From IMG/VR virus record IMGVR_UViG_3300040751_002535: DNA of 64,000 bases. One strand, 5' to 3'. This DNA is from a virus. The translations under genes were made by a program, and so were the position numbers. Under the pieces are notes generated by a model. The model worked only from the letters and a program-made list of their open reading frames with translations. It had not been told where the DNA came from and made no database searches. Positions within the stretch are counted from its first letter, which is position 1; each line of letters opens with the position of its first letter. Of the stretch, positions 8,789 through 48,675 are shown one piece after another.

Positions 8789-9651
8789 AACAGTATTTAG
8801 ACGCATTAGAATATATTTTAGAGCACGGCAAAGATCGTAATGATAGGACAGGTGTAGGCACACGTGGTGTGTTTGGTTATCAAATGCGTTTTGATTTACG
8901 CAATGAGTTTCCTGCTGTCACTACAAAGAAACTTGCTTGGCGTAGTGTAGTAAGCGAACTACTATGGTTCTTAGAAGGTAGCAGTGACGAGCGCAGGCTG
9001 GCTGAAATTCATTATGGTAAGCCACGTGAAGAACTAGTAGACAAAACAACTATTTGGACTGCTAATGCAGACAATCAAGGTGCTACATTAGGATATATCA
9101 ACAACGATACTACAAAAGATTTGGGTCCAGTATATGGACACCAATGGCGCACCTGGGATGCACAACTTGGACATGTAGATCAAATTGCACAAGTGTTAGA
9201 AGGTCTTAAACACGATCCTGATAGTAGAAGGCACATTGTTTCTGCTTGGAACGCTGATCGTGTACCTGTAATGGCATTGCCACCTTGTCATACCATGTTC
9301 CAGTTTTACGTGCAGGACGGAGAACTAAGCTGTCAACTTTATCAGCGCAGTGCTGATATGTTCCTAGGTGTGCCTTTTAATATTGCAAGTTATAGTTTGC
9401 TGGTACACATGTTTGCACATCTCTTAGAATTAAAAGTAGGTGACTTTGTTTGGACTGGTGGCGATTGTCATATCTATCAAAATCACTTTGATCAAGTCAA
9501 AGAACAACTTACTCGTGAACCACGCAACGGACCAACACTTCTGATGCCTAAGTTTAGCACATTAGAAGAACTTGTTAATACTAGTACAAATGATTATCAG
9601 TTATTAAACTACGATCCTATGCTTAGTATCAAAGCACCAATGGCAGTGTAA
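8785..9651 (+). CDS. thyA: Thymidylate synthase
   Basis: DRTGVGT, ELLWF, MALPPCH, YQRSAD, GVPFN. Confidence 0.97.
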   Translation: MKQYLDALEYILEHGKDRNDRTGVGTRGVFGYQMRFDLRNEFPAVTTKKLAWRSVVSELLWFLEGSSDERRLAEIHYGKPREELVDKTTIWTANADNQGATLGYINNDTTKDLGPVYGHQWRTWDAQLGHVDQIAQVLEGLKHDPDSRRHIVSAWNADRVPVMALPPCHTMFQFYVQDGELSCQLYQRSADMFLGVPFNIASYSLLVHMFAHLLELKVGDFVWTGGDCHIYQNHFDQVKEQLTREPRNGPTLLMPKFSTLEELVNTSTNDYQLLNYDPMLSIKAPMAV

Positions 9652-9908
9652 TGCCGCCAACAGTTGAAATAGATATTGAATGGACTGAAAAGTATGCATG
9701 GTGGCCAACACGCAGCAGTTGGAGTAAAAAGCGTATCTGGTTGAAAACGTATTGGAAAGGCGAAATATTCTATGACGCTATGGGTCGTCCGCCTATTAAA
9801 CAAAGTAGTTGGAAACTCACCTATACTGAAAATGAGTACTTGTTGATGTTGTTAAGAGAGGATGCTAAAAATCAACATCCTCTCGGGTTTAAAAGTGTTA
9901 GAGTTTAA
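9651..9908 (+). CDS. Hypothetical protein
   Basis: 85-aa ORF overlapping the thyA stop. Confidence 0.6.
   Translation: MPPTVEIDIEWTEKYAWWPTRSSWSKKRIWLKTYWKGEIFYDAMGRPPIKQSSWKLTYTENEYLLMLLREDAKNQHPLGFKSVRV
9856..9884 (-). terminator. Hairpin at the convergent junction downstream of phoH
   Basis: GAGAGGATG...CATCCTCTC inverted repeat, extendable by G-U pairs on the - strand. Confidence 0.45.
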
Positions 9909-10642
9909 ACGTCTCCGTAAATCTCTAATACTTCTTTAACTGCTTCATGTCTTTCGATGTCGCCTTTATGAAACACAACAGTACTAATACGTCTTGATGA
10001 GCTGTTTTCTAAATGGTTAACAAAGTCAAGTAATCCGTTATCTTTTAATCTATCTGCTTGAGCCAAATCACCTGTAACAACCATTTTTGATCCTGTGCCT
10101 ATACGTGTTAACAACATTTTCATTTGGTTCGGTGTAGCATTTTGCATTTCGTCTGCAATAATATAAGCATCTTTAAAAGTTCTTCCTCGCATATATGCAA
10201 GTGGTGATATTTCAATAACACCTTCTTTTATCATACCTTCAATTTCATTTGCATAAAAATGTTCTCTAAATACATCAAAAATAGGCCTAGTCCAAGGTGC
10301 CATTTTTTCTTCTAATGTACCTGGTAGAAAACCTAAATCTTCATCAGCACTTACTGCCGGCCTTGTAACAACTATACGTTCTACTTCGCCATTTAAAAAT
10401 GCTTTAACAGCACTCTGACATGCCAGAAGTGTTTTACCTGTACCAGCTGGACCAATACCAAAAACTATGTTTTTATCCGTATCCAGTAGTTCTAGGACGT
10501 ATTCTTCTTGGTTGCGATTTCTTGGAAGTATATCAACATTTCGTTGTTTTTTTGGAAGGAAAGTGTTTAGTTTAACAACATTATTAATGTTATTATTTGA
10601 TTTAATGTGTGCTTGCCTTTTAGCGGCTCTAGCTTTACCCAT
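9905..10642 (-). CDS. phoH: PhoH-family ATPase
   Basis: GPAGTGKT, LGFLPG, YMRGRTF, DEMQN, VTGD; AGGAGG RBS. Confidence 0.95.
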   Translation of the reverse strand: MGKARAAKRQAHIKSNNNINNVVKLNTFLPKKQRNVDILPRNRNQEEYVLELLDTDKNIVFGIGPAGTGKTLLACQSAVKAFLNGEVERIVVTRPAVSADEDLGFLPGTLEEKMAPWTRPIFDVFREHFYANEIEGMIKEGVIEISPLAYMRGRTFKDAYIIADEMQNATPNQMKMLLTRIGTGSKMVVTGDLAQADRLKDNGLLDFVNHLENSSSRRISTVVFHKGDIERHEAVKEVLEIYGDV

Positions 10643-10664
10643 GTAGTCCTCCTATGAGTTAGAA

Positions 10665-10710
10665 CAGGGGATGTTTCCTTTGCAGGAAACCTTCCCTGCA
10701 CTCGTATTTA
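10665..10710 (-). promoter_or_regulatory. Late-type TAAATA promoter and 5' leader hairpin of phoH
   Basis: TATTTA at 10705-10710 (TAAATA on -); stem CAGGGGATGTTTCCT/AGGAAACCTTCCCTG at 10665-10698. Confidence 0.55.
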
Positions 10711-10768
10711 CTCTTTTTATGATTGTATTATATACGTAGTGAATTATTTTATTAACATTACTATAGGT

Positions 10769-10776
10769 GATAAATA
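10769..10776 (+). promoter_or_regulatory. T4-like late promoter (GATAAATA)
   Basis: The same motif precedes several late genes. Confidence 0.55.
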
Positions 10777-10799
10777 GTTATAATAAAGCGAGGACAACA

Positions 10800-11375
10800 A
10801 TGCCTAATATATTAGACACTCTTGATGTGATAGAAAATCTTAGTTCGATCTATGAAAACGATCGTGCGTTTGCAGTACTTAAAGACTTTGAAAGAGTCAT
10901 TGATGAGTTAGGGTTGTATGTGTATGACAACTGGGAAGAAGGCGAACTAGCAGCTGGCCCAGAAATAGATCGTCACTGGGTCAAATGTAGTTTTATGTGG
11001 CCAAGAAAACGTATGCCTGACCCACAAGGTGGTAAGCGTTTGCTTGATTATGATTGTAAAATACAATATGAAAAATCAAGTATCATTAAACCACGTCAAA
11101 TAAAAAAACCAGGAGATATTCGTCCTGGAACTAAAAAAGGTAAACTTGATAAAGTTCCAGTATGGTTAGTGCATATAACTATGCCTAAAAAACTAATCAT
11201 TAGTATTTTTGGTGGAGATGTTGAAACTATCGATCTACCAGATACTGAAAGTAAAAATGCAGCAGGTGCACCAGCACCAGCAGGTGGAGCAATGCCAGCA
11301 CCAATAGCAGCACCAGCACCAGTAGGTGGAGCAGCACCAGCCGCTGTCGCTGCGCCAGCACCAGGAGCAGTATAA
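10800..11375 (+). CDS. Conserved hypothetical protein with Ala/Pro-rich tail
   Basis: ATG after a GAGG RBS; low-complexity APAP tail. Confidence 0.7.
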   Translation: MPNILDTLDVIENLSSIYENDRAFAVLKDFERVIDELGLYVYDNWEEGELAAGPEIDRHWVKCSFMWPRKRMPDPQGGKRLLDYDCKIQYEKSSIIKPRQIKKPGDIRPGTKKGKLDKVPVWLVHITMPKKLIISIFGGDVETIDLPDTESKNAAGAPAPAGGAMPAPIAAPAPVGGAAPAAVAAPAPGAV

Positions 11376-12094
11376 TGGGATTAAGAGCCAACGATTTACA
11401 CGACTTAGTAAAACCAGTTTTTGAAGTAGATAGTTTTCAAAGTAAAATGGGAACAGATGAGGATATTGTAGTAGTAAGTTTTAGTGTATTAGATGAACAA
11501 GCTGCAAAAGATCTTGTAGATTTTATTGAAAAAGGTTATGGATTTGTATTAGATGCAGATGCAACACCTGGCGAAATTGAAAATAATGTTTATAAAGTAT
11601 TTGTAGAAATGGAAAGAAATGCCAAAGTTCCTGCAAATATTTCAAACTTGTTAGACGGAGTTGGAAAATTAGCAGAAATCGAAAACTTTAGATTTCGCTA
11701 TCATAAAAGTTTTACAAGTTACGAAGCAAATGTAACAAATCTATCAGAAATGATACCAGCGGATCAATTTATCTACAACGATACTATTGTACAAGAAAAT
11801 AATATGAATCACTTTAAAGACTTTTTTAGCAAGAGCTTTATGGAAAATATTGAAATATTTGGAGATGATTTAATTCTTAAAAGACCGTTTGGCGATGCTA
11901 TTGGACTTACTATAAAAGATTTTAACACTACTCATTATATAAATAAAAATTTAACTGAAAAAATAAACATGAATGATTATGCAGAAATATTATTTTTAAC
12001 TAAATATCTTGGTGATTACAATGTTACTAAATTTGGTAAAAATACACTAACGTTTGAAAACGAAGGACACACACTTGTCGTTGAAAGACTTTAA
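11375..12094 (+). CDS. Conserved hypothetical (probably late) protein
   Basis: 239-aa ORF coupled to the upstream gene. Confidence 0.7.
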   Translation: MGLRANDLHDLVKPVFEVDSFQSKMGTDEDIVVVSFSVLDEQAAKDLVDFIEKGYGFVLDADATPGEIENNVYKVFVEMERNAKVPANISNLLDGVGKLAEIENFRFRYHKSFTSYEANVTNLSEMIPADQFIYNDTIVQENNMNHFKDFFSKSFMENIEIFGDDLILKRPFGDAIGLTIKDFNTTHYINKNLTEKINMNDYAEILFLTKYLGDYNVTKFGKNTLTFENEGHTLVVERL

Positions 12095-32911: not shown

Positions 32912-33637
32912 TTGAATAGATTTATATTTGATGTGGACGGAACACTTACTCCTAGTAGACAACCCATAGATCCTGAGTTCAAAGAGTTTTTTAAACACTT
33001 TATTCGTGACAACAAAGTATGGTTGGTAACAGGCAGCGATTATCCAAAAACTGTGGAGCAACTCGGTGCAGACATTACTGAAAGTGTTGTTACCTGCTAC
33101 AACTGTAGTGGAAATGATGTATGGCATCAAGGCAAACGAGTAAATGCTAAGTCATTTGAAGCACCTCAAGAACTGTATAGTTTGATGGAAGGCTGGTTAC
33201 AAAGCAGTCCTTTCTCGCTACGAACAGGCAATCACATTGAACCACGTATGGGCACTATCAACTTTAGTGTCGTAGGCAGAAACTGCACATTGGAAGAACG
33301 CAAGTTATATGTCGAGCACGATATCAACAACAGAGAACGTGAAAGCATTGCACTTCAAATCAACAGTGAGTTTCCTAGTATTACAGCAACAGTTGGCGGC
33401 GAAACTGGTATTGACATTTATCGTACAGGTTGTGACAAAAGTCAAATCCTAGACGACTTTGACAGAAACATTTCCACATACTTCTTTGGAGACAAAGTTG
33501 AACCGGGCGGCAATGATTACCCATTGGCAAAGGCACTGAAAGATCGTGGATTTAGAGGCGCATCATTTAATGTCAAAGACTGGCGTGACACATACGAAAG
33601 ATTACAATATTTTCAAGAAGCAAAGGTAGCAGCATGA
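32912..33637 (+). CDS. HAD-IIB phosphomannomutase-like enzyme
   Basis: FDVDGTLT, VTGSD, IEPRMGTINFS, FFGDKVEPGGNDY. Confidence 0.88.
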   Translation: MNRFIFDVDGTLTPSRQPIDPEFKEFFKHFIRDNKVWLVTGSDYPKTVEQLGADITESVVTCYNCSGNDVWHQGKRVNAKSFEAPQELYSLMEGWLQSSPFSLRTGNHIEPRMGTINFSVVGRNCTLEERKLYVEHDINNRERESIALQINSEFPSITATVGGETGIDIYRTGCDKSQILDDFDRNISTYFFGDKVEPGGNDYPLAKALKDRGFRGASFNVKDWRDTYERLQYFQEAKVAA

Positions 33638-34389
33638 TTATTGCAGGATACGGCTTTGTAGGCAAAGCACACGAAATACTATTCAAAAACTATCGTAGAG
33701 AGATTGTAATACACGATCCTCCCAAAGGTATGACGGCAGACTTTGACAATACTAGTGCTGTTGTTGTTTGTGTTCCCACTCCAGAACTGGAATCAGGTGC
33801 ATGTGATATTAGTGCAGTATACGATATTGTATCGCAGTGCAACAAAAATACACCAATATTGATCAAAAGCACTATTAGTTTGCAAGGATGGCAATACCTA
33901 AAAGAAACATTTCCCGAACATCGTTTGTGTTTTAGCCCAGAATTTCTTCGTGCAATGAACTACTTAAACGATATTAAGAACGTTGACAATGTTATACTAA
34001 GCGGTGACACAGATTACTGGCGTGATCAATACAGTGTAAACTGGTCAAATATCAAAATAAACATTGTATCGCCTGAAGAAGCCATTGCCATCAAATACTT
34101 TCGCAATGCATTCTTGGCAACCAAAGTAAGTTTTTTCAACGAGATTTATGACTTCTGCAATGCAAACGATATAAACTTCGATCAAGTACGTGGAGGTATT
34201 GCAGCGGACGAACGCATCGGCAATAGCCATACGTTTGTTATGCCAGATCAAGGCGTTAGAGGATGGGGCGGTATGTGTTTCCCCAAAGACACCGCAGCAC
34301 TATTAAAAATGGCAGCAGAAAAAAATATTAATCTAAATACACTTGAAGCAGCAGTTGAATACAATAAAAAAATAAAAAATAATGCTTGA
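33634..34389 (+). CDS. UDP-glucose/GDP-mannose dehydrogenase family
   Basis: GYGFVG, CVPTP, IKST, PEFL, GGMCFPKD. Confidence 0.9.
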   Translation: MIIAGYGFVGKAHEILFKNYRREIVIHDPPKGMTADFDNTSAVVVCVPTPELESGACDISAVYDIVSQCNKNTPILIKSTISLQGWQYLKETFPEHRLCFSPEFLRAMNYLNDIKNVDNVILSGDTDYWRDQYSVNWSNIKINIVSPEEAIAIKYFRNAFLATKVSFFNEIYDFCNANDINFDQVRGGIAADERIGNSHTFVMPDQGVRGWGGMCFPKDTAALLKMAAEKNINLNTLEAAVEYNKKIKNNA

Positions 34390-39427: not shown

Positions 39428-40000
39428 ATGACAGCTAAACTTAAAAGTCTAAAACCGTTTTTAGAAGGTACAAAAATACCCGCAGGTATTGACAACGCTC
39501 ATAGAGGAAAGTACATCGAAACACTGTATGAAGACCAAGGATTCGAAGTAAACAAAGGTCTTGGAGCAGATTTTGAAGATGCAGAGATTGATATTAAAAG
39601 TCGTATGTTAGAATCTCGCAGTGCTCATAGCATTACAACTTGTACTGAAGATCACATAATTGCCAAAAGTTATCAAGATAGCAATGTTTGTCCTAAAGTA
39701 CAACGTTGGGATCAACCAGTATACTCTGAATCTTACAATGAAATAGTCAAGCATGAAAACTACGATTTTAGAGACGACTATATTCAAGGCATTATTCAAG
39801 AAGGGTATGAAGATTGTAGATCACAGATTGTTAACGGAACAACTAGCAATTATGTTCGCAGCAAAAATGGTTATGTGATTTTTGAAAGGTCTTCTCAGCG
39901 CGACAATTCATGGCAGGTTAGATTTCCACACAGTGCTATGAAAAAACTCAAGGGCATGAGCAAACAAGTTTCTCATAGTAATCTATTCGAGTTTGTATAA
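39428..40000 (+). CDS. PD-(D/E)xK endonuclease-like protein
   Basis: GKYIE...G...N...GAD...EIDIKSR resembles MutH/Sau3AI/MvaI cores. Confidence 0.55.
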   Translation: MTAKLKSLKPFLEGTKIPAGIDNAHRGKYIETLYEDQGFEVNKGLGADFEDAEIDIKSRMLESRSAHSITTCTEDHIIAKSYQDSNVCPKVQRWDQPVYSESYNEIVKHENYDFRDDYIQGIIQEGYEDCRSQIVNGTTSNYVRSKNGYVIFERSSQRDNSWQVRFPHSAMKKLKGMSKQVSHSNLFEFV

Positions 40001-40001
40001 G

Positions 40002-40877
40002 ATGAAAGTATTAGTCACAGGTGCAAGCGGTTACATTGGTAGCCATGTTTGCAAGTTATTGAAAGAACATGGACACACAGTTGTTGGCTGGGATACAGAA
40101 ATCCACGGCGAAACAAATGATGTTGCTGCTTATTGTGATCAATACCATAATGTGGATGTCACTGGACAGTACGCCGGTGGCATCTACGATGCTGTTGTAC
40201 ACCTTGCAGGACGCAGTGTAGTACCACAGAGTTTGTTAGAGCCCACAGAGTACTACAGAGTGAATGTAATGGGCACTGCAAACCTGTTAAACATGGTTAC
40301 AACGCCACATGTGCTGTTTGCTAGTACCAGCAGTGCTTGGGAAATGGCTTCGCCGTATGCACGTAGCAAAGTAGCAGCCGAAGATGTAATCAAGGAAAAG
40401 GCAGATGGATATACAATATTTAGATTTTTTAATGTATCTGGTACTGACGGGCATAATCGTCAGTTGGGCGATCCTACCCATCTTATTCGTGTTGCTGCTA
40501 TGGTGGCTGCTGAGAAACTACCCGACATTAAGATCTTTGGTACGGACTATGATACTAGGGATGGCACTTGTATTCGTGATTATATTCATGTTGTTGATTT
40601 GGCTCGTGCCATTGTCAACGGAGTGGAACGAGGTCCTGCCAACACACCATACGAATGTCTTGGTTCTAACGTAGGATACAGTGTGCGTGAAGTAATCAAT
40701 ACCATGCAGCAAGTCACTGGTAAAAAGTTAAATACTATTAAAGCAGAACGCAGAGAAGGTGATGCTGTATCTAGTGTTGTAGATAATCTTAGTGATTTAG
40801 TAACATTAGAAAAAAGCATCGAAGATATGTGTTTAGATCAATACACCCTGGAGATTAGAAAAAATGGAAAAACTTAA
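40002..40877 (+). CDS. galE: UDP-glucose 4-epimerase
   Basis: VTGASGYIG, YARSK, RFFNV, DGTCIRDYIHV, RREGD. Confidence 0.92.
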   Translation: MKVLVTGASGYIGSHVCKLLKEHGHTVVGWDTEIHGETNDVAAYCDQYHNVDVTGQYAGGIYDAVVHLAGRSVVPQSLLEPTEYYRVNVMGTANLLNMVTTPHVLFASTSSAWEMASPYARSKVAAEDVIKEKADGYTIFRFFNVSGTDGHNRQLGDPTHLIRVAAMVAAEKLPDIKIFGTDYDTRDGTCIRDYIHVVDLARAIVNGVERGPANTPYECLGSNVGYSVREVINTMQQVTGKKLNTIKAERREGDAVSSVVDNLSDLVTLEKSIEDMCLDQYTLEIRKNGKT

Positions 40878-41091
40878 TAAACTCACATTACAAATAGTAG
40901 AGATGTTAGATAATGGCGATCTTATGGGATGCTATAGTTTATTTGAAGCAGAGATAAGAGATATTATACCAACTTTAGATCAAGAATCAGAAATAGGAAA
41001 AACGTGGCTACATCAAGTTAAACTGATTGACGACGAAGACTGGGGCGGAGTAATGGAAAATATGGAAAATATTAGAAAGTTTGTTGAATAA
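40864..41091 (+). CDS. Hypothetical protein
   Basis: 75-aa ORF coupled to its neighbours. Confidence 0.55.
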   Translation: MEKLNKLTLQIVEMLDNGDLMGCYSLFEAEIRDIIPTLDQESEIGKTWLHQVKLIDDEDWGGVMENMENIRKFVE

Positions 41092-41408
41092 TGGAAGAAG
41101 ATACTATTACTATTAGTAGTGCCAGTGAATCTACGTTTGACATCGCTGATTTAACAGTTAATACCATTGATATTAGTAGTATTACATCAAGTACTGTTAG
41201 TACTATTACACTTGACGACACACACTGGTCAGACGGGATTACTTGGGAACAAATTGAGTTTGAAGATAGTATGCCCTCAGTTGCTAAAGTAGAAGATATG
41301 TGCAATGATTATCCGGCATTGGCAAAAGCATACGAAAACTTTAAAACTATATATTCTCTAGTACATCAAGATTGGAAAGGCAAACAGGATGACCAGCTTC
41401 CGTTTTAA
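41091..41408 (+). CDS. Hypothetical protein
   Basis: Ser/Thr-rich N-terminus; YPALAKAYENFKTIYSLV. Confidence 0.65.
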   Translation: MEEDTITISSASESTFDIADLTVNTIDISSITSSTVSTITLDDTHWSDGITWEQIEFEDSMPSVAKVEDMCNDYPALAKAYENFKTIYSLVHQDWKGKQDDQLPF

Positions 41409-41910
41409 TATAACTCCGGATTGGAATATTGATGATTACAAATCATTAAGCTTCAAACGTGATACTGTAAAAGGACAAACTACAGTACAGGAATACTTTC
41501 GAGTAGGACATCAGCCTGGCCGAATGACAATGCTCAACTATTTTGAACCTAACCCTATGCCTAGTAGTGTTGATTATGTTAAAACATTTTTCAGCGATTT
41601 AGTTAATGTTACTGCGGCGATTAATGTGTTTGAACCTGGACACTACTTACCATTACATCGAGACAACTATAGAAAATATCAAAGTGTTGCTAAAGAGATT
41701 TTAAAAGACAGAGGCATAAATGCAATATACCGATATGTTGTTATGCTTGAAGATAGTGTTCCTGGGCAAATGATGCATATTGGAAGTACTATACATCATA
41801 CATGGAGCGCTGGCGATGTATTTGGTTGGGTTGGTGACGAAATGCATACATTTTATAATATGAGTTTGAAGGATAGATATGCAATACAAATCACCGGAAT
41901 ACAAACGTAG
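41389..41910 (+). CDS. 2OG-Fe(II) oxygenase-like (DSBH) protein
   Basis: PG..LPLHRD...H...N...RYAIQITG. Confidence 0.7.
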   Translation: MTSFRFNITPDWNIDDYKSLSFKRDTVKGQTTVQEYFRVGHQPGRMTMLNYFEPNPMPSSVDYVKTFFSDLVNVTAAINVFEPGHYLPLHRDNYRKYQSVAKEILKDRGINAIYRYVVMLEDSVPGQMMHIGSTIHHTWSAGDVFGWVGDEMHTFYNMSLKDRYAIQITGIQT

Positions 41911-43156
41911 TGATGTTTTTTTAGATAACTGCTTGGTTATACAAATAAAAGGACAAACTCGATTTATAAACGAACATTACAATATACTAGACAATCTCAA
42001 CAACTATATTGGATGTGATCAAATGTATAAAATGAGTTTTTTAAGTCATTATGATGGAAACTTTATACAAATACACGATATGGGACATCTTCCATACTTG
42101 GAGAATTTAAATCTAAGCTCTATTGATATTAATGAACTAAACAAAAATAAGCTAACTATTTTTCTCACTGAACAAATAATTCATACTGATAACGATTATT
42201 GTAGAATATTACTAGGAACAGATGATACTGCAAGCACCTCAACGTCTGGCATTCCTTACAATACTACAAACACTATTTGGTCGCCTGAACTTGACAGTAT
42301 TGAAATATTTGTAAAAAATAATAATCTAACCAATGTTTCAGTTTGTGTAAGTTTTGATGACATCACTGATATTTACAAAGACAGATACAGTTTTAACTTA
42401 TATCGAAATGATGCTTGTTTAGATGCACTAAACAACTTATATAAATCATTTGATGAGGTAGAACATATTCGACCTGTTGACATTAACAAAAAGTTTTGGT
42501 GTGCAAACTGGAGATATAGTTCTCATAGACATCTTATTACAGCATATGCTAGTACACTTGACACTGAATATAGTTGGGGATTTATTGACGACGACTTGAA
42601 AGTTTTAGAAAATTTATGGTTAGATTTAGAAAACTTTAAATTCAAAGATAGCATTGTTGATAGATTAGAATATTTAAACAAAAACAATAGAAGTATAGAT
42701 ATACCAACTACGTCGATGGAGATTGATGGCAACATACTTGACGAAGCTAAACGTCTACAAGAAATACCAGCTGGACCATATGATACTAATCAATATGCTA
42801 GTAGTGATTTATTTAAAAATACATTTTGTTCAATTGTTAATTTAAGTACATTTGCAGAGCCGTTTCCCTGCTACGATGAAAAACCACTAAATGCAATATT
42901 TAACTTACGTCCATTTATATTATGTGGACCACCGGGCAGTTTGGCACTTATGCGTAAAGATGGGTTTAAAACGTTTGGAGATTTTTGGGACGAATCATAC
43001 GACAATGAGTTGGATCATACCAAACGTTTAGAAAAAATATTCAAACTAATAGATGAGATAGATAGTTGGAGCATACGTGATTGTCAAGAAATATATGCCA
43101 ACATGATTCCAACACTATTTGAAAACTATCATAAATTTAAAAAACCAAACTTATGA
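41879..43156 (+). CDS. Glycosyltransferase-like protein
   Basis: C-terminal EKPL.AI...RPFIL.G..GSL...GFKTFGDFWDESYD; exact start uncertain. Confidence 0.5.
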   Translation: MQYKSPEYKRSDVFLDNCLVIQIKGQTRFINEHYNILDNLNNYIGCDQMYKMSFLSHYDGNFIQIHDMGHLPYLENLNLSSIDINELNKNKLTIFLTEQIIHTDNDYCRILLGTDDTASTSTSGIPYNTTNTIWSPELDSIEIFVKNNNLTNVSVCVSFDDITDIYKDRYSFNLYRNDACLDALNNLYKSFDEVEHIRPVDINKKFWCANWRYSSHRHLITAYASTLDTEYSWGFIDDDLKVLENLWLDLENFKFKDSIVDRLEYLNKNNRSIDIPTTSMEIDGNILDEAKRLQEIPAGPYDTNQYASSDLFKNTFCSIVNLSTFAEPFPCYDEKPLNAIFNLRPFILCGPPGSLALMRKDGFKTFGDFWDESYDNELDHTKRLEKIFKLIDEIDSWSIRDCQEIYANMIPTLFENYHKFKKPNL

Positions 43157-44082
43157 AATGTGCAGCGTTATACAATCATACTAACATAAGGGGAGGTGAT
43201 CGCATCTTCCCTTGCTGCCGTTTTAAAAACAGCATACAATGGTTTGACGGTGACGTAAACAACATACTAAACAGTTACAGTTACAATCTACTTAGAAGTA
43301 GAATGGAATCTGGCGAAAAGTTACCAGAATGTGCCAAGTGCTGGCATGAAGAAAATCTAGGCAAACCTAGTCTTAGACAATGGTTCAACGAAAACTACAG
43401 TACAGATGAAATCAAACTTAGATACCTTGAGGTAGGATTTGACAACATTTGCGATCTAACCTGTGACGGATGTTGGGAAGAATGGAGCAGTAGTTGGTGG
43501 GTCAAAAAGAATCCCGGACTTCCTCCCAAACAAGGTATTACTAGTACAACTGAATTTAGAAACATTCCAGAAAGCATTGAAAAGGTTGTGTTTTTAGGGG
43601 GTGAGCCGCTGATGACAAATCGTCATAGACGCTTCTTGGAAAGTTTTGATACACTGGATCATTTAGAAGTAGAATACTTTACAAACGGTATGCATAGTTT
43701 AACACAAGAGGATTACGCTGTATTGAGTAAATGCAAACGTGTACATTTCACTGTAAGCATAGATGGTGTCGGTGCACTAAATGAACAAGTACGTGGAAAC
43801 AGTATTTGGAGTAAGGTTCTAAAAACACTAGACGAGATTGCTGACACATTTGATTATACTATTCATACTACAATACATAAAAATAACTGGCATGGATTGC
43901 CTGATATGTACCAATGGACAAAAAAATATGCAAAATGGACAACAAATGTCTTGACATATCCTAAAAAATTAGATATAATAAACTTAGAGCAGTGTGACAA
44001 ACAAAAACTTTTGGATATCTTAGATGAGTTTGATATTCCAAATAAACAATATATAGGCACACACTTAAAAGGAGACGCATAA
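43153..44082 (+). CDS. Radical SAM protein with N-terminal SPASM/twitch-like Cys cluster
   Basis: PCC...CAKCW; CDLTCDGC; GGEP; SIDG. Confidence 0.85.
   Translation: MKCAALYNHTNIRGGDRIFPCCRFKNSIQWFDGDVNNILNSYSYNLLRSRMESGEKLPECAKCWHEENLGKPSLRQWFNENYSTDEIKLRYLEVGFDNICDLTCDGCWEEWSSSWWVKKNPGLPPKQGITSTTEFRNIPESIEKVVFLGGEPLMTNRHRRFLESFDTLDHLEVEYFTNGMHSLTQEDYAVLSKCKRVHFTVSIDGVGALNEQVRGNSIWSKVLKTLDEIADTFDYTIHTTIHKNNWHGLPDMYQWTKKYAKWTTNVLTYPKKLDIINLEQCDKQKLLDILDEFDIPNKQYIGTHLKGDA
43951..43979 (+). promoter_or_regulatory. Internal consensus sigma70 promoter
   Basis: TTGACA-17 nt-TATAAT inside the radical SAM gene. Confidence 0.6.
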
Positions 44083-44693
44083 TGGATATGCGAAGTTATG
44101 AAGATTGGCAAGTACACGATGCTACTGAAGGATCAGTAGAAGATGTTACTTGGAACAGCAATGACCTTCTTACGTTACCGTGGGAAGCAACATATATGAC
44201 AGACGAAATTCCCGAAGATAGTAGTTGGGATACATTTGCAACAAAAAACAAAAAAGCATTAGAAGCAATGTACGCACAATGGGGAGTACCTAAAGAAGGT
44301 AGCTTACACTATATGAGCATACGTCCTGAACTTACAAAAGGACTAGGCAGTATTATTTCTCCGTATGCACATATGACATTTAACTATAACTTTTTAAAAC
44401 TTACACCGGGTTGTAGTTTAATGTGGCACTTTGATACATATGCTACATTTGTAAGATACAACAACATTGCAGAAGACGATGTTCACAATGTATGTAGAAC
44501 TGTTATTATGATGAAAGACTGGGATAGAGGACAAGTATTACAAGTAGGTGATGAAGTTTACACACATTGGCAAGAAGGTGATACGTACACTTGGAAAGGC
44601 GATACGTGGCACGGTATGGCAAACTTTGGTCCTAGTGACATAGTTGTTGCACAAGTAACATTTTTGGATGAAAATGACCGATATACCCAATGA
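44082..44693 (+). CDS. 2OG-Fe(II) oxygenase-like (DSBH) protein
   Basis: PG..LMWHFD...W..GD...WHGMAN; paralog of the ORF at 41389. Confidence 0.7.
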   Translation: MDMRSYEDWQVHDATEGSVEDVTWNSNDLLTLPWEATYMTDEIPEDSSWDTFATKNKKALEAMYAQWGVPKEGSLHYMSIRPELTKGLGSIISPYAHMTFNYNFLKLTPGCSLMWHFDTYATFVRYNNIAEDDVHNVCRTVIMMKDWDRGQVLQVGDEVYTHWQEGDTYTWKGDTWHGMANFGPSDIVVAQVTFLDENDRYTQ

Positions 44694-45573
44694 TAAACGC
44701 AGCATGGATTTTGGCAGTGCATTTGCTATAGCAGATCCAGAAACTATAAAGCTGTTGCGTCAAACTTTTAATTTTACCGATCTTAACAGCGATAGTATCA
44801 TTGATGAGTTTTTGAATGAATATGACACTTGGATTAAAAGTGGCACACTAAATGTATTTACTGGATTAGAAGATTTCAAATACAAATGCTATAGTAATGG
44901 TACTACTGAAAGTTTTGATAAGTTTTACATGAAAAATTCCAAGCGTAGGTTTCGCTGCTACAAAGGCGAGTATATGTATCATAAACTTGCATGGCGTGAT
45001 AAGTTTGATTGGCAATGGTTAGAAGAGTCCCCGTTGCACAAAAACGATGCTGTTGTTATAAGTTTGCCGTTTGCAGACACTGGCGACAAGCATACATTGT
45101 ATCATGAACTTATGCGCAAGTGCAGCAAGCTAAACATACCTGTGTTAGTAGATTGTGCATACTACGGGGCTTGTAGGCATATACATATTGATTTAGCGTA
45201 TCCGTGTATTACAGATGTTACATTTTCGTTAAGCAAAACATTCCCTGTTGCATATGCACGTATCGGAATACGCTATACTAGAGTTGACGATGATGACACT
45301 ATGTTTGTGTATCATAAAATAAACTACAACAATAAAATAGGTGCATTGCTAGGATTAGAATATTTTAAGAACTTTACACCCGATTATATATCAAACAAAT
45401 ATCTTGACAAACAAACAGAATTCTGTAATAATACTAATGTGTTACCAAGTAAGACAGTATTATTTGGTATTGACAACAATAATAAATACCCTCAATACAA
45501 CCGAGGCGGAACTAGTAATCGACTAAGTTTCCACAAGCAATATATTAAAGGACTAGACTTTGCCAGTACATAG
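44668..45573 (+). CDS. PLP-dependent fold-type I enzyme
   Basis: NGTTESF, VISLP, VDCAYYG, FSLSKTF, RIG. Confidence 0.75.
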   Translation: MKMTDIPNDKRSMDFGSAFAIADPETIKLLRQTFNFTDLNSDSIIDEFLNEYDTWIKSGTLNVFTGLEDFKYKCYSNGTTESFDKFYMKNSKRRFRCYKGEYMYHKLAWRDKFDWQWLEESPLHKNDAVVISLPFADTGDKHTLYHELMRKCSKLNIPVLVDCAYYGACRHIHIDLAYPCITDVTFSLSKTFPVAYARIGIRYTRVDDDDTMFVYHKINYNNKIGALLGLEYFKNFTPDYISNKYLDKQTEFCNNTNVLPSKTVLFGIDNNNKYPQYNRGGTSNRLSFHKQYIKGLDFAST

Positions 45574-46615
45574 TAATAACGATTGGGATCCACTAGAAGA
45601 AATTATTATTGGCACAGCAGAAAACTGTGTACATCCTACTATGAATAAGAGTACACACAGTTTTATCTATGGCGGAGAACAACTTGAAGATATCAAACAG
45701 TTTGACGGTCAACCTATTGAACAATGGATTGTAGATGAAGCAAACGAAGACTTAGAAGGTCTTGAAAAATGTTTGCAAGGGCTAGGTGTTAAAACATTAC
45801 GTCCTGAACCAATAGATCACAACAAGAAGTTTAGCACACCAGAATGGGAAACAACAGGCTGGTATACTTTTTGTCCACGTGACTTACTACTACCATTGGA
45901 CAATATGATTATTGAATGTCCAAGCCCTATGCGAGCAAGATACTTTGAAACTAGAGCATACTATAAACACTTGTATCGTTGGATGCAAGAAGGCACACAA
46001 TGGATCAATGCTCCTAAGCCTATCCTAACAGATGACAACTATCAACTAGAAGACAGGCGTGATGCTACACTAGTAAACAAAGAGATTATTTTTGATGCAC
46101 CTAACATTGTGCGACTAGGCAGAGACTTGCTGTGTCAAGTAAGCAACAGTGGTAATCAACTAGGCTTTCAGTGGCTAAAGACTATCTTAGAACCCAAGGG
46201 ATATCGGTTGCACGTTGCAGAGAAGTATTATAGCTTTGCACACTTTGACAGTACAGTACTACCTTTACGCCCAGGGTTGGTACTATTAAACGCAGGAAGA
46301 CTAAGCGAGGATTGGTATCCACCTATTTTCAAAGACTGGGATAAGATCTGGGTAGGCGAAGAAGACTTGCACGTTCCGGCTGCAAACACAGGTGTTGCTC
46401 CATGTAGTCCTTACATTGGACTTAACTTTTTAAGTGTTAACGAAGAACTGGTTATTGTAGACGAAAAGCAAGAGTCATTAAGACGCATCTTGGGCAAGCA
46501 TGGTATTGATACTATTGGGTTGCCCATGCGTCAAGCACGTAGTATGAGCGGCGGCTTTCACTGTGCAACACTAGATACAAAACGCAAAGGCACACTAGAG
46601 GATTATTTTCAATGA
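45560..46615 (+). CDS. Amidinotransferase (glycine/inosamine-phosphate family)
   Basis: NDWDPLEEIIIG, CPRD, FDA, HFDST, GGFHCATLD. Confidence 0.92.
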   Translation: MPVHSNNDWDPLEEIIIGTAENCVHPTMNKSTHSFIYGGEQLEDIKQFDGQPIEQWIVDEANEDLEGLEKCLQGLGVKTLRPEPIDHNKKFSTPEWETTGWYTFCPRDLLLPLDNMIIECPSPMRARYFETRAYYKHLYRWMQEGTQWINAPKPILTDDNYQLEDRRDATLVNKEIIFDAPNIVRLGRDLLCQVSNSGNQLGFQWLKTILEPKGYRLHVAEKYYSFAHFDSTVLPLRPGLVLLNAGRLSEDWYPPIFKDWDKIWVGEEDLHVPAANTGVAPCSPYIGLNFLSVNEELVIVDEKQESLRRILGKHGIDTIGLPMRQARSMSGGFHCATLDTKRKGTLEDYFQ

Positions 46616-46794
46616 CCATGAACCCACGGCCAAACAAAAATACAGAACAAGAAATGATTGATGAGTTTTTAAACAAGGGTGGAAAGATCACCAAAGGCAA
46701 AACTAAAGCAATGCCCAGTGAACTTGGCATCAGTAACAATCAATGGAACAACAAACTTACTAAAGCAGAAAAAGATGCAAAGGACGGCAAGTAA
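46612..46794 (+). CDS. Hypothetical protein
   Basis: IDEFLNKGGKIT. Confidence 0.6.
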   Translation: MTMNPRPNKNTEQEMIDEFLNKGGKITKGKTKAMPSELGISNNQWNNKLTKAEKDAKDGK

Positions 46795-47018
46795 TGTTAC
46801 ATACTATTGAAGATCTTATACATCGTATTAATTTAATGAAAGACAAAGCAATCTTATTGCATCGAGTTCGCAACGAGTTTGCTGAGATTTCTTATAAAGA
46901 ATATGACAAAGTAACATGTCAAAATCTTATTGCCGATATTCAAAGCATTGCTCGAGGTATTGCTAACGATACCCAAGGCGATGAAATAAAAACAGAAATG
47001 GATGAATGGAAGAAATGA
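46794..47018 (+). CDS. Hypothetical protein
   Basis: 74-aa ORF coupled to its neighbours. Confidence 0.55.
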   Translation: MLHTIEDLIHRINLMKDKAILLHRVRNEFAEISYKEYDKVTCQNLIADIQSIARGIANDTQGDEIKTEMDEWKK

Positions 47019-48106
47019 ACAACTATATCTTTACAAGCGAAAGTGTTAGTGACGGACACCCTGATAAAGTAGCAGATCAAATATCTGATGCATTAGTAGA
47101 TGTCGGGCTTGCTAATGGAGACGAGACAACTCGTGTAGCCATCGAAACACTTGTAACCACTAACCACGTAACGTTAGCAGGCGAAGTAAAAAACTTTAAT
47201 GTCACCAAAGACAAAGTTAAACAACTTGTGCGTGACAAAGTTAAAGAGATTGGTTATGAACAAGAAGGATTTCATTGGGATAACTTGCGTATCTATAATG
47301 AGATTCATTCTCAATCAGGAGACATTGCACTAGGTACAGATGACTTTGGTGCAGGCGATCAAGGACTGATGTTTGGATATGCTTGTAATCATACTGATAG
47401 TATGATGCCAGCACCTATTCATTATAGCCATGAAATCCTAAAAAACTTGAAAACAAAGCGTGGTAAAATACTAGGACCAGATGCTAAAAGTCAAGTAAGC
47501 GTAGAGTACTATGGTGCTAGACGTGATGGTGTGATTAAACGTATTGATCAAGTTGTGATAAGTACACAGCACACAGAAGGCAACGTAGAAGAGGCAAGAC
47601 ATCTTTGTAAACTTGCCGCAATGGAAGAATTAGGAGACTTAGTCGATGAAAGAACTACATGGCATCTTAACCCTACTGGAAATTTCGTTATTGGTGGTCC
47701 TGACGGTGATGCAGGTGTTACTGGGCGGAAAATTATTGTTGATACTTATGGGGGTTTTGCTCCTCATGGTGGCGGTGCGTTTAGTGGCAAAGATCCAACA
47801 AAAGTCGACAGAAGTGCCGCCTACATGGCACGATGGCTCGCCAAGAATGTAGTAGCAGACAATATGGCGGACTGGTGCAATATACAGTTGAGCTATGCTA
47901 TTGGTGTTAAAGAACCTACAAGCATTTATGTTGATTCAAACGGTCATAATGCTAGTATTGCAAAGTTTATTGAACGTGAAATCGACTTAACTCCAAAAGG
48001 AATCATTGACAGATTTGATTTATTCAAGTATACTAACTATAGTAAAAACTGTACATACGGACACTTTGGCAACAAAGATGTTCCTTGGGAGAAAATTGGA
48101 TGGTAA
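47015..48106 (+). CDS. metK: S-adenosylmethionine synthetase
   Basis: FTSESV..GHPDK, GAGDQG, GGGAFSGKD. Confidence 0.97.
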   Translation: MNNYIFTSESVSDGHPDKVADQISDALVDVGLANGDETTRVAIETLVTTNHVTLAGEVKNFNVTKDKVKQLVRDKVKEIGYEQEGFHWDNLRIYNEIHSQSGDIALGTDDFGAGDQGLMFGYACNHTDSMMPAPIHYSHEILKNLKTKRGKILGPDAKSQVSVEYYGARRDGVIKRIDQVVISTQHTEGNVEEARHLCKLAAMEELGDLVDERTTWHLNPTGNFVIGGPDGDAGVTGRKIIVDTYGGFAPHGGGAFSGKDPTKVDRSAAYMARWLAKNVVADNMADWCNIQLSYAIGVKEPTSIYVDSNGHNASIAKFIEREIDLTPKGIIDRFDLFKYTNYSKNCTYGHFGNKDVPWEKIGW

Positions 48107-48675
48107 AAAAATATTACACATATGATGATGTACACAATGCTGCAATGCACATTGTATTGCAAATGTACAAAGACAACTGGCGGCCAGACTATGTTGTAGG
48201 TATTACAAGAGGCGGCCTTCCATTAGCATTGCGCATTAGTAACCTGCTAGATTGTCGTATGGAAACACTCAAAGTTAAACTGCGAGACGGTAAGCCAGGT
48301 GAAGAATGCGAAAGCAACTGCTGGATGGCTGAAGATGCATTTGGATACGAACACTATAAAATTTTAGAACACAATGCAGACATTAGTGCCAGTGCAGGAG
48401 AACCTATTGTAGATCTTCCGATTAGCAAAAAGAACATTCTTATTGTAGATGACATCAACGACACTGGTGCTACATTTAACTGGATTAAACAAGACTGGCA
48501 AAGTGGGTGCTTGCCCGACAATCCTAACTGGGATACTGTATGGGGCGGTAATGTAAGATTTGCTACTATGACTGAAAATTTTAGTAGTCAGTTTCCTGAC
48601 GTCAACTATTGGTGGCACGAAGTAAATAAGTCAGAAGAAAATACCTGGCTAGTATATCCATGGGAATATGATTAA
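48100..48675 (+). CDS. Purine phosphoribosyltransferase (Gpt-like)
   Basis: GITRGG, ILIVDDINDTGATF, WLVYPWE. Confidence 0.9.
   Translation: MVKKYYTYDDVHNAAMHIVLQMYKDNWRPDYVVGITRGGLPLALRISNLLDCRMETLKVKLRDGKPGEECESNCWMAEDAFGYEHYKILEHNADISASAGEPIVDLPISKKNILIVDDINDTGATFNWIKQDWQSGCLPDNPNWDTVWGGNVRFATMTENFSSQFPDVNYWWHEVNKSEENTWLVYPWEYD

Follow-up and report, generated by a model that had tools for sequence, protein, structure and literature searches.

A phage-borne gene cassette with a StrB1-like amidinotransferase and its possible role in sugar tailoring

Introduction

Guanidino sugars are, to our knowledge, known from aminoglycoside antibiotics but not from viruses. Here, we analyzed a cassette of six genes, termed A to F, in a 64,000-nt stretch of DNA from an uncultured marine giant phage (IMG/VR record IMGVR_UViG_3300040751_002535), which is referred to in its entire length as the window. 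The last of these genes encodes a predicted amidinotransferase that resembles StrB1 of streptidine biosynthesis. With moderate confidence, we read the cassette as an early-expressed set of sugar-tailoring genes, whose products would oxidize, transaminate and amidinate a sugar or nucleotide sugar and then transfer it.

Three bacterial pathways offer points of comparison. In the streptidine branch, which comprises StrI, StsC and StrB1 (PDB 1bwd), the amidinotransferase aligns with F over its full length including the catalytic triad, and the order of steps is the same as proposed here. However, the cassette is without a StrI-type NAD dehydrogenase, its pyridoxal 5'-phosphate (PLP) enzyme E is HisC/CobD-like instead of DegT/StsC-like, and it contains glycosyltransferases and a radical S-adenosylmethionine (SAM) enzyme, with no kinase found, and is borne by a phage. 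In 2-deoxystreptamine biosynthesis, the twitch radical SAM dehydrogenase BtrN oxidizes an aminocyclitol, followed by the PLP aminotransferase BtrS. The cassette likewise has a predicted auxiliary-cluster radical SAM enzyme (C) beside a PLP enzyme, and the two are even found naturally fused. The auxiliary domain of C is N-terminal, though, and C falls into family NF033640; the comparison with BtrN is one of proposed function. In the Arn pathway (Ugd, ArnA, ArnB, ArnT), which leads to 4-amino-4-deoxy-L-arabinose (L-Ara4N), a run of dehydrogenase-like, short-chain dehydrogenase/reductase (SDR), PLP and transferase genes is paralleled in the distant relative L028, and both routes would end with a cationic sugar attached to an acceptor. 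Here, the SDR matches are weak, the dehydrogenase is truncated to ~250 amino acids (aa), E is not ArnB-like, and an amidinotransferase is added.

Among cultured phages, CP220/CPt10 (PMC2853527) and S-SCSM2R (PMC12801897) come closest. Both systems combine several radical SAM enzymes and glycosyltransferases with an amidinotransferase, which is 29% and 37% identical to F, respectively, and S-SCSM2R carries an A-type cupin beside its amidinotransferase. In contrast to the cassette, the amidinotransferases of these phages lie on other branches of the tree, and no PLP enzyme of the E family was detected in them. The glycosyltransferase genes that accompany the amidinotransferase clusters in CP220 and S-SCSM2R are of the GT-A type, and CP220 gp085, a 173-aa protein encoded before the amidinotransferase, showed no similarity to D. 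In place of E, S-SCSM2R has a PLP enzyme that GenBank and the paper annotate as belonging to the 3-amino-5-hydroxybenzoate (AHBA) synthase family (PMC12801897); this AHBA-synthase-like protein showed no similarity to E. Timms et al. (2010) regarded the radical SAM/amidinotransferase module of CP220/CPt10 as an interchangeable, probably non-essential block (PMC2853527), and the 2025 description of S-SCSM2R called its genes 'antibiotic synthesis genes' on annotation only (PMC12801897). Published work thus annotates such genes and has tested no function in either report (PMC2853527, PMC12801897). To this we add that dehydrogenase and SDR genes are inserted into the cassette, that PLP and radical SAM domains occur fused, that B has a GT-B fold, that F alleles were exchanged, and that small proteins flank the cassette.

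Results

Layout of the cassette

The cassette and its internal promoter comprise the following predicted features.

A, 41389..41910, plus strand: 173-aa cupin-like HxD...H protein, paralogue of D ('A-type', encoded beside the amidinotransferase in other phages)
B, 41879..43156, plus strand: 425-aa glycosyltransferase of GT-B fold, virus-only unnamed family
C, 43153..44082, plus strand: 309-aa radical SAM enzyme with an N-terminal auxiliary-cluster (twitch/SPASM-like) domain
D, 44082..44693, plus strand: 203-aa cupin-like HxD...H protein with a conserved N-terminal extension ('D-type')
E, 44668..45573, plus strand: 301-aa compact fold-type I PLP enzyme (HisC/CobD-like), unnamed family
F, 45560..46615, plus strand: 351-aa arginine-type amidinotransferase, StrB1-like
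Sigma-70-type promoter, 43951..43979, plus strand: TTGACA-17-TATAAT, in the 3' end of C, ~100 nt before D

The original prediction for this DNA, which was made from its letters alone, had described six overlapping enzyme genes with a consensus promoter at 43951 driving the last three. All six open reading frames (ORFs) are indeed present on the plus strand between 41389 and 46615, with overlaps of 1-32 nt between neighbors. The real genes of the window all use the plus strand, and GC content and skew are even. A search of IMG/VR with F yielded 64 viral loci (referred to by L numbers), onto which the window proteins were then mapped; most of these contigs are fragments, and the absence of Dpd genes discussed below applies to their flanks and not to whole genomes. 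Since the cassette genes are conserved across these loci, they lie far beyond chance ORFs. No match was obtained when the region was compared by megablast with 50,697 phage records.

The promoter is likewise real: it is the sole 12/12 match to the sigma-70 consensus in 64 kb, with a spacer of 17 nt. All close relatives have it in the identical position, as does L028, a distant relative with a C protein that is 52% identical. Sigma-70-type sites with at least 11 of 12 matches number 13 on the plus strand of the window versus one on the minus strand, and the T4 late promoter motif TATAAATA was not found at 29-51 kb. Because the promoter is kept before D and the late motif is missing from this region, D-E-F probably form an early sub-operon under their own promoter.

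Two further sigma-70-like sites with 11/12 matches lie on the plus strand, one at 45404-45432 with an extended -10 TG within the end of E ahead of F, the other at 48006-48034 within the end of the MetK gene ahead of a phosphoribosyltransferase gene. A promoter within the preceding gene would seem to be the rule in this gene block.

F resembles StrB1 over its full length

Residues 5-349 of F aligned with StrB1 (PDB 1bwd) at an E value of 4.6e-85, interrupted by two short gaps. The catalytic Asp (IFDAPN), His (AHFDST) and Cys (GGFHCATLD) of F align to the StrB1 triad, and H228, D230, H334 and C335 are invariant in 22 relatives. HsvA, SxtG and AGAT also aligned (E 1e-54 to 1e-60), but these alignments were weaker and needed insertions. 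Judged by its sequence, F is a genuine arginine-type amidinotransferase of the StrB1/AGAT type (pentein fold), full-length and with the intact Asp/His/Cys set that had been predicted. Most likely, F would transfer the amidino group from arginine to an amine.

A second subfamily of amidinotransferases, ~36% identical to F, was encoded on the same contigs as F-type enzymes (L026:14677-15663, plus strand; L001:8995-9954). On the amidinotransferase tree, it groups with the S-SCSM2R enzyme.

The radical SAM enzyme C and the PLP enzyme E

C matched the NCBIfam family NF033640 (N_Twi_rSAM) at an E value of 1.1e-55 with 189.4 bits, exceeding the curated cut-off of 170, and also matched Pfam Radical_SAM. 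Invariant in 23 relatives are C3, C21, C22, C60, C63, the CxxxCxxC motif (C100/C104/C107) and GGEP, which settles its identity as a radical SAM protein. A distant C orthologue matched Pfam SPASM at its N-terminus (residues 20-81). The five invariant N-terminal Cys residues point to an N-terminal auxiliary-cluster domain, and C is therefore predicted to carry an auxiliary Fe-S (twitch) domain with bound cluster. A literature search on NF033640 found no papers.

E reached 15.7 bits against Pfam PF00155, which is under the gathering cut-off of 19.7. It had no above-threshold family match, and a profile of the E family retrieved no aminotransferase from PDB sequences. Foldseek searches with an AlphaFold model of E (predicted local distance difference test (pLDDT) 88) instead returned HisC, CobD and class I/II aminotransferases at an E value of 1e-10 and a probability of 1.0. 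D162, S189-K190 (the SxSK lysine), R198 and R285 are invariant in 26 sequences; the Schiff-base lysine and the Asp that would hold the pyridine nitrogen were assigned by motif position. According to its model, E is a fold-type I PLP enzyme of the HisC/CobD-like type, in agreement with its original designation as a PLP enzyme. Given the sub-threshold PF00155 score and the lack of PDB aminotransferases by sequence, E represents a separate unnamed family with this fold, which has ~1670 unnamed members, mostly from marine samples.

Two protein clusters, P0121 and P0122 (707 and 711 aa), represent PLP-radical SAM fusions. They contain an E-like PLP domain (E 5e-45, lysine kept) and a C-like N-twitch radical SAM domain (E 7e-8). 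This fusion suggests that the radical SAM and PLP steps are tied to one substrate.

The cupin-like proteins A and D

A and D are paralogues (E 3e-12), and their HxD...H motif is invariant in 32 family members; in D numbering, the invariant positions are H116, D118, H177, R139, N181 and Q191. Searched alone, A had no match in Pfam or the PDB. It shares 44% identity with the neighbor of the amidinotransferase in Synechococcus phage S-SCSM2R and is present in some close relatives only. D adjoins E in phages and bacteria alike. A profile of the A/D family matched AtsK/TauD weakly, at an E value of 0.004 over 46 residues across the distal-His strand, and in the Atlas neighbor cluster of D, 19% of the members carry PF05118 (Asp/Asn beta-hydroxylase-like). 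The original prediction had called A and D double-stranded beta-helix oxygenases. Their paralogy and metal-binding-type triad stand, while the support for an oxygenase is this weak AtsK/TauD profile match.

D was also considered as a beta-carbonic anhydrase, from a match to PDB 1ddz (E 4e-6 over 29 residues). Its Cys is not conserved in the family, and the match was dismissed as chance.

B adopts a predicted GT-B fold

B had no match in Pfam, NCBIfam or PHROG. Its AlphaFold model (pLDDT 77) contains three disordered stretches, and the top 50 rows of the VIA and Foldseek searches with this model were nearly all GT-B enzymes. In VIA-align, T4 beta-glucosyltransferase (PDB 1c3j) scored best with a Z of 10.3 over 268 residues at 5% identity, followed by EXT1 (9.7), an alpha1,3-fucosyltransferase (9.6), the glycosyltransferase of phage HY126 (9.5) and T4 alpha-glucosyltransferase (8.8). 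B thus shares the two-domain fold of T4 beta-glucosyltransferase, but the identity is low and its Z scores are tied with those of unrelated GT-B enzymes. The Atlas lead for B was GT10 (0.79), and its C-terminal part holds a conserved block, EK...RPF...FWDESYD. The model indicates that B is a glycosyltransferase with the two Rossmann domains of a GT-B fold, which sharpens its first description as a glycosyltransferase-like protein. A match of B to rubrerythrin at an E value of 0.27 was rejected.

C-D-E-F travel as a set

Across the relatives in the 64 viral loci, C-D-E-F were kept together down to 53% F identity, and E adjoined F in every context. The presence of A, B and MetK varies, and B-family genes, which accompany nearly all full cassettes, change position: L003 has one between E and F and another after F, and L009 has one after F. 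The cassette of L026 comes after four radical SAM genes in tandem and two B-like genes, close to a T4 gp15 tail gene. PHROG annotation of the L041 and L033 flanks returned generic phage genes only.

A minimal form, E'-F-C', is located between DNA-repair genes and a giant baseplate-like gene in L015/L021 (~9100-12000). Its F is 88-90% identical to the F of the window, whereas E' (PLP) and C' (radical SAM) are only 32-41% identical to their counterparts, which means that the F allele was exchanged on its own. Independent assortment of the genes, named by the original prediction as a point against itself, was therefore found for F alleles, A, B and MetK, which are swapped around, but not for C-D-E-F, which are widely kept as a set. 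In L015/L021, a sharp recombination boundary was seen at the E/F junction.

In bacterial genomes, E and D form an adjacent pair, often without C or F, among acyltransferase-3, GT1, GalE and UDP-glucose dehydrogenase (UGDH) genes. Some of the sequences recorded as bacterial may derive from phages that were binned with single-cell or metagenome data.

Nucleotide-sugar genes and MetK near the cassette

Upstream of the cassette, the window encodes cytidylyltransferase-like, PMM-like HAD, compact nucleotide-sugar dehydrogenase-like, dpdA-like, DpdL, GT1-like and GalE-like SDR proteins. Downstream of F, two small ORFs are followed by MetK, a phosphoribosyltransferase, FolE and QueE. Three of these neighbors are listed below.

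33634..34389, plus strand: compact nucleotide-sugar dehydrogenase-like protein (TIGR03026, E 9e-40; GGxCxxKD Cys motif kept), likely partner
39993..40877, plus strand: GalE-like SDR nucleotide-sugar epimerase/dehydratase (Pfam Epimerase, E 1e-35; TIGR01179 galE, E 1.3e-58, below cut-off), likely partner
47006..48106, plus strand: MetK, S-adenosylmethionine synthetase (three Pfam domains)

GalE-like SDR genes co-occur with the cassette whether the context is Dpd or non-Dpd. Between D and E, L028 has an insertion of two genes, one for a nucleotide-sugar dehydrogenase-like protein with the GGxCxxKD motif kept and one for an SDR enzyme. The latter matches the LegB, heptose epimerase and UXS/ArnA families, the UXS/ArnA matches being weak and non-specific. 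A dehydrogenase and SDR pair was also found beside the cassette in L029, L032 and L033/35/37/61, all of which represent non-Dpd context types.

The dehydrogenase-like proteins (window 33634-34389; L028:7440-8207) are only ~250 aa long. They keep GxGxxG and GGxCxxKD, are without the C-terminal nucleotide-sugar-binding domain of UGDH, and recur beside an SDR gene of ~300 aa.

The identity of MetK, which the original prediction had placed close behind the cassette, is certain from its three Pfam domains (E 8e-32, 2e-32 and 1.3e-57). Its place in the system is less firm: some of the close relatives lack MetK, and in L003 it is found at another position, which marks it as an accessory gene that comes and goes.

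Discussion

A proposed route to a guanidino sugar

The following scheme is inferred with regard to all substrates, the sequence of reactions and the acceptor. In a first step, a hydroxyl-bearing carbon of a sugar, most likely nucleotide-activated, would be converted to a ketone, either by the twitch radical SAM enzyme C in a BtrN-like, oxygen-independent manner, by the iron cupin D, or by both. In some relatives, the pair of nucleotide-sugar dehydrogenase and SDR may supply the ketone instead. Bacteria have D without C and the minimal phage form has C without D, so that the two enzymes may represent exchangeable solutions to one oxidation step, C working without oxygen and D with it. The PLP enzyme E would then transaminate the ketone to an amine, onto which F would move the amidino group of arginine, releasing ornithine and yielding a guanidino sugar. 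Finally, a GT-B enzyme (B, possibly also the upstream GT1) would pass the sugar to an acceptor.

Several lines of evidence support sugar tailoring. The closest enzyme to F is StrB1, which acts on an aminocyclitol, and the triad is retained. C-D-E-F are kept together, with E next to F even in the minimal trio, and the radical SAM and PLP domains occur fused. B-family GT-B genes, dehydrogenase/SDR pairs and bacterial E-D pairs amid polysaccharide genes add to this, as does the presence of sigma-70-type promoters only, without a T4 late motif, which fits early expression. In the cultured phages, the GT-A genes of CP220 and S-SCSM2R and the PLP enzyme annotated as AHBA-synthase-like in the latter point the same way. 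The predicted logic of oxidation, transamination and amidino transfer on a sugar-like molecule is thus in line with the enzyme set, the D-E-F order under its own promoter, and the company of GT-B, dehydrogenase and SDR genes. Its description as streptidine-type needs qualification. The order of steps agrees, but the oxidant may equally be C, since the minimal form consists of radical SAM, PLP and amidinotransferase genes only and PLP-radical SAM fusions exist; among the enzymes, F is of StrB1 type, but E is not of the DegT/StsC type.

A number of observations weigh against sugar tailoring. E is HisC/CobD-like and not DegT/StsC-like, and all sugar and inosose aminotransferases known to us belong to the DegT type; E could instead catalyze a decarboxylation, or its substrate could be an amino acid or a phosphate ester. 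While StrB1 itself acts on a phosphorylated compound, Pfam and NCBIfam scans recognized no kinase in the cassette. Below NF033640, the next best NCBIfam families for C are peptide-modifying radical SAM enzymes, i.e., maturases of peptides that are made on ribosomes and modified after translation (RiPPs). In D, an invariant Gln191 occupies the position of the 2-oxoglutarate-binding Arg of AtsK/TauD, although the invariant R139 might take over the role of binding the C5-carboxylate of 2-oxoglutarate. No dehydrogenase/SDR pair was found in contexts L026, L041 and L050-53, and the families of C, D, E and B contain no assayed enzyme. Altogether, we regard the cassette as a plausible variant of amidinotransferase-based amino-sugar tailoring, in which the chemistry is plausible and DNA as the target is doubtful.

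Possible acceptors and alternative readings

For the acceptor, we tentatively place a glycoconjugate of the host envelope or the virion first. This preference draws on the occurrence of the cassette without Dpd genes, the DNA data for CP220, the polysaccharide contexts in bacteria and the virion proteome of S-SCSM2R, in which purified virions held another amidinotransferase and a 2-oxoglutarate oxygenase (PMC12801897). Phage DNA is an unlikely acceptor, favored by early expression, the gene neighborhood and the likeness of B to T4 beta-glucosyltransferase, and a free product with no acceptor at all seems less likely still.

Decoration of phage DNA had been put forward by the original prediction, next to decoration of the virion. 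In this reading, a guanidino sugar or guanidino side chain would be placed on 7-deazaguanine or another base of phage DNA, where it would add positive charge and block host nucleases; we consider it rather improbable although it fares best among the alternatives. In the window, the cassette is part of one co-directional early block with dpdA-like, DpdL, GT1, phosphoribosyltransferase, FolE and QueE genes. In a second lineage (L042-49), the cassette has Dpd, FolE and QueE genes on its flanks in the same synteny, in spite of DpdA proteins that are just 49-57% identical, and in a 340-kb phage a 40%-identical amidinotransferase is encoded ~15 kb from DpdA and FolE. The best structural match of B is T4 beta-glucosyltransferase, and its top nine include two more phage glycosyltransferases, T4 alpha-glucosyltransferase, which acts on DNA, and the enzyme of HY126, a phage whose DNA carries arabinosylated 5-hydroxycytosine. 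Moreover, radical SAM and then PLP enzymes are reported by Lee et al. to act on DNA-tethered groups in thymidine hypermodification.

On the other hand, L026, L028, L033, L041, L051 and L053 have full 10-kb flanks without Dpd, FolE or QueE genes. At least three changes of the Dpd context label are required on the F tree, where the two Dpd clades are set apart by non-Dpd clades. The complete genome of S-SCSM2R contains the cluster of amidinotransferase, cupin, radical SAM and glycosyltransferase genes and encodes neither DpdA nor FolE. The co-occurrence with dpdA that had been proposed as a check was hence not conserved, and decoration of DNA did not hold as a general rule, the adjacency being confined to two related lineages. 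It rather appears to be old in the lineage than to reflect a conserved functional link. In CP220, which has such a cluster, G is reported to be replaced to 100% by plain 2'-deoxy-7-amido-7-deazaguanosine (dADG) (PMC10516641). A search of complete or near-complete genomes yielded no hydroxymethylase of the thymidylate synthase family, and PF00303, which would mark the hydroxymethyl-pyrimidine route to DNA glycosylation, was missing from nine records that are mostly fragments, so that this result says little. Further, the Z scores of B are tied with those of fucosyltransferases and exostosin, and the bacterial E-D pairs reside in polysaccharide islands. More specifically, the early-expressed cassette of this lineage, with its T4 beta-glucosyltransferase-like GT-B enzyme, might attach a guanidino sugar to the DNA of the phage itself, at a 7-deazaguanine or next to one, a proposal that seems improbable. 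If true, this modification would be without precedent in any genome as a guanidinylated, glycosylated purine analogue, and would offer a novel means of neutralizing DNA charge and evading nucleases.

Less probable than DNA decoration in general is that the cassette makes a free small guanidino metabolite, such as a guanidino alcohol phosphate or amino acid, which would act on host metabolism or competitors with no glycosyl transfer. The minimal trio E'-F-C' has no glycosyltransferase or sugar gene within 10 kb, the closest folds of E, HisC and CobD, act on small phosphate esters, and the relatives AGAT, SxtG and HsvA of F act on small molecules; the label given to the S-SCSM2R genes (PMC12801897) would also agree. 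However, GT-B genes are almost always present, even between E and F, nucleotide-sugar enzymes are encoded inside the cassette, and the similarity of F to StrB1 far exceeds that to the enzymes acting on glycine and small amines.

Tailoring of an adjacent small protein or a virion protein, with O-glycosylation of a Ser/Thr-rich part by the GT-B enzyme, is improbable: the RiPP maturase matches of C, the Asp/Asn beta-hydroxylase-like neighbors of D, structural matches of B to enzymes that glycosylate serine-rich repeats (Gtf3; SdgB, GtfA), the enzymes in S-SCSM2R virions, and a small Ser/Thr/Asp/Ile-rich protein upstream of the cassette in both Dpd lineages, with a second one after F in L042-49, would speak for it, but such small proteins are absent from non-Dpd contexts, we know of no arginine-type amidinotransferase that acts on peptides, sugar chemistry better explains the nucleotide-sugar genes, and the promoters of the region are early and not late.

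The identity of the product would name four large 'hypothetical' families, i.e., the N-twitch radical SAM enzymes, the compact PLP enzymes, the cupins and the GT-B proteins. It would also show of what use a cationic sugar is to a phage, whether in masking DNA, virions or the host surface. The cassette is abundant and passes among bacteria, giant phages and phages of the T4 type. Related clusters, for which our finding gives concrete candidate substrates, are present in two cultured systems, S-SCSM2R and the CP220-type phages.

Additional observations

Between MetK and FolE/QueE, a purine-type phosphoribosyltransferase is encoded at 48085-48675 on the plus strand (Pfam Pribosyltran, E 3e-12; weak XPRT/HGPRT matches). 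It is kept in all relatives of the Dpd lineage. This enzyme could convert a 7-deazaguanine base to the nucleotide, which would hint at a pre-replicative route and not at base exchange on DNA.

Just upstream of A, a 105-aa protein is encoded at 41091-41408 on the plus strand. Its N-terminal half is hypervariable and rich in Ser, Thr, Asp and Ile (TITISS...TIDISSITSSTVSTITLDD), and its C-terminal half is conserved (MPSVAKVEDMCNDYPALAKAYENFK). Small Ser/Thr-rich proteins of this kind were noted at window 41091-41408, L042:6690-7067, L044:5366-5770 and L042:11052-11402, the first type preceding the cassette in both Dpd lineages. In L042-49, the second small protein, located after F, is rich in Ser, Thr and Gly and shows a similar YPxLxKxY motif. 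They might serve as substrates or scaffolds, or be small phage proteins with no connection to the cassette.

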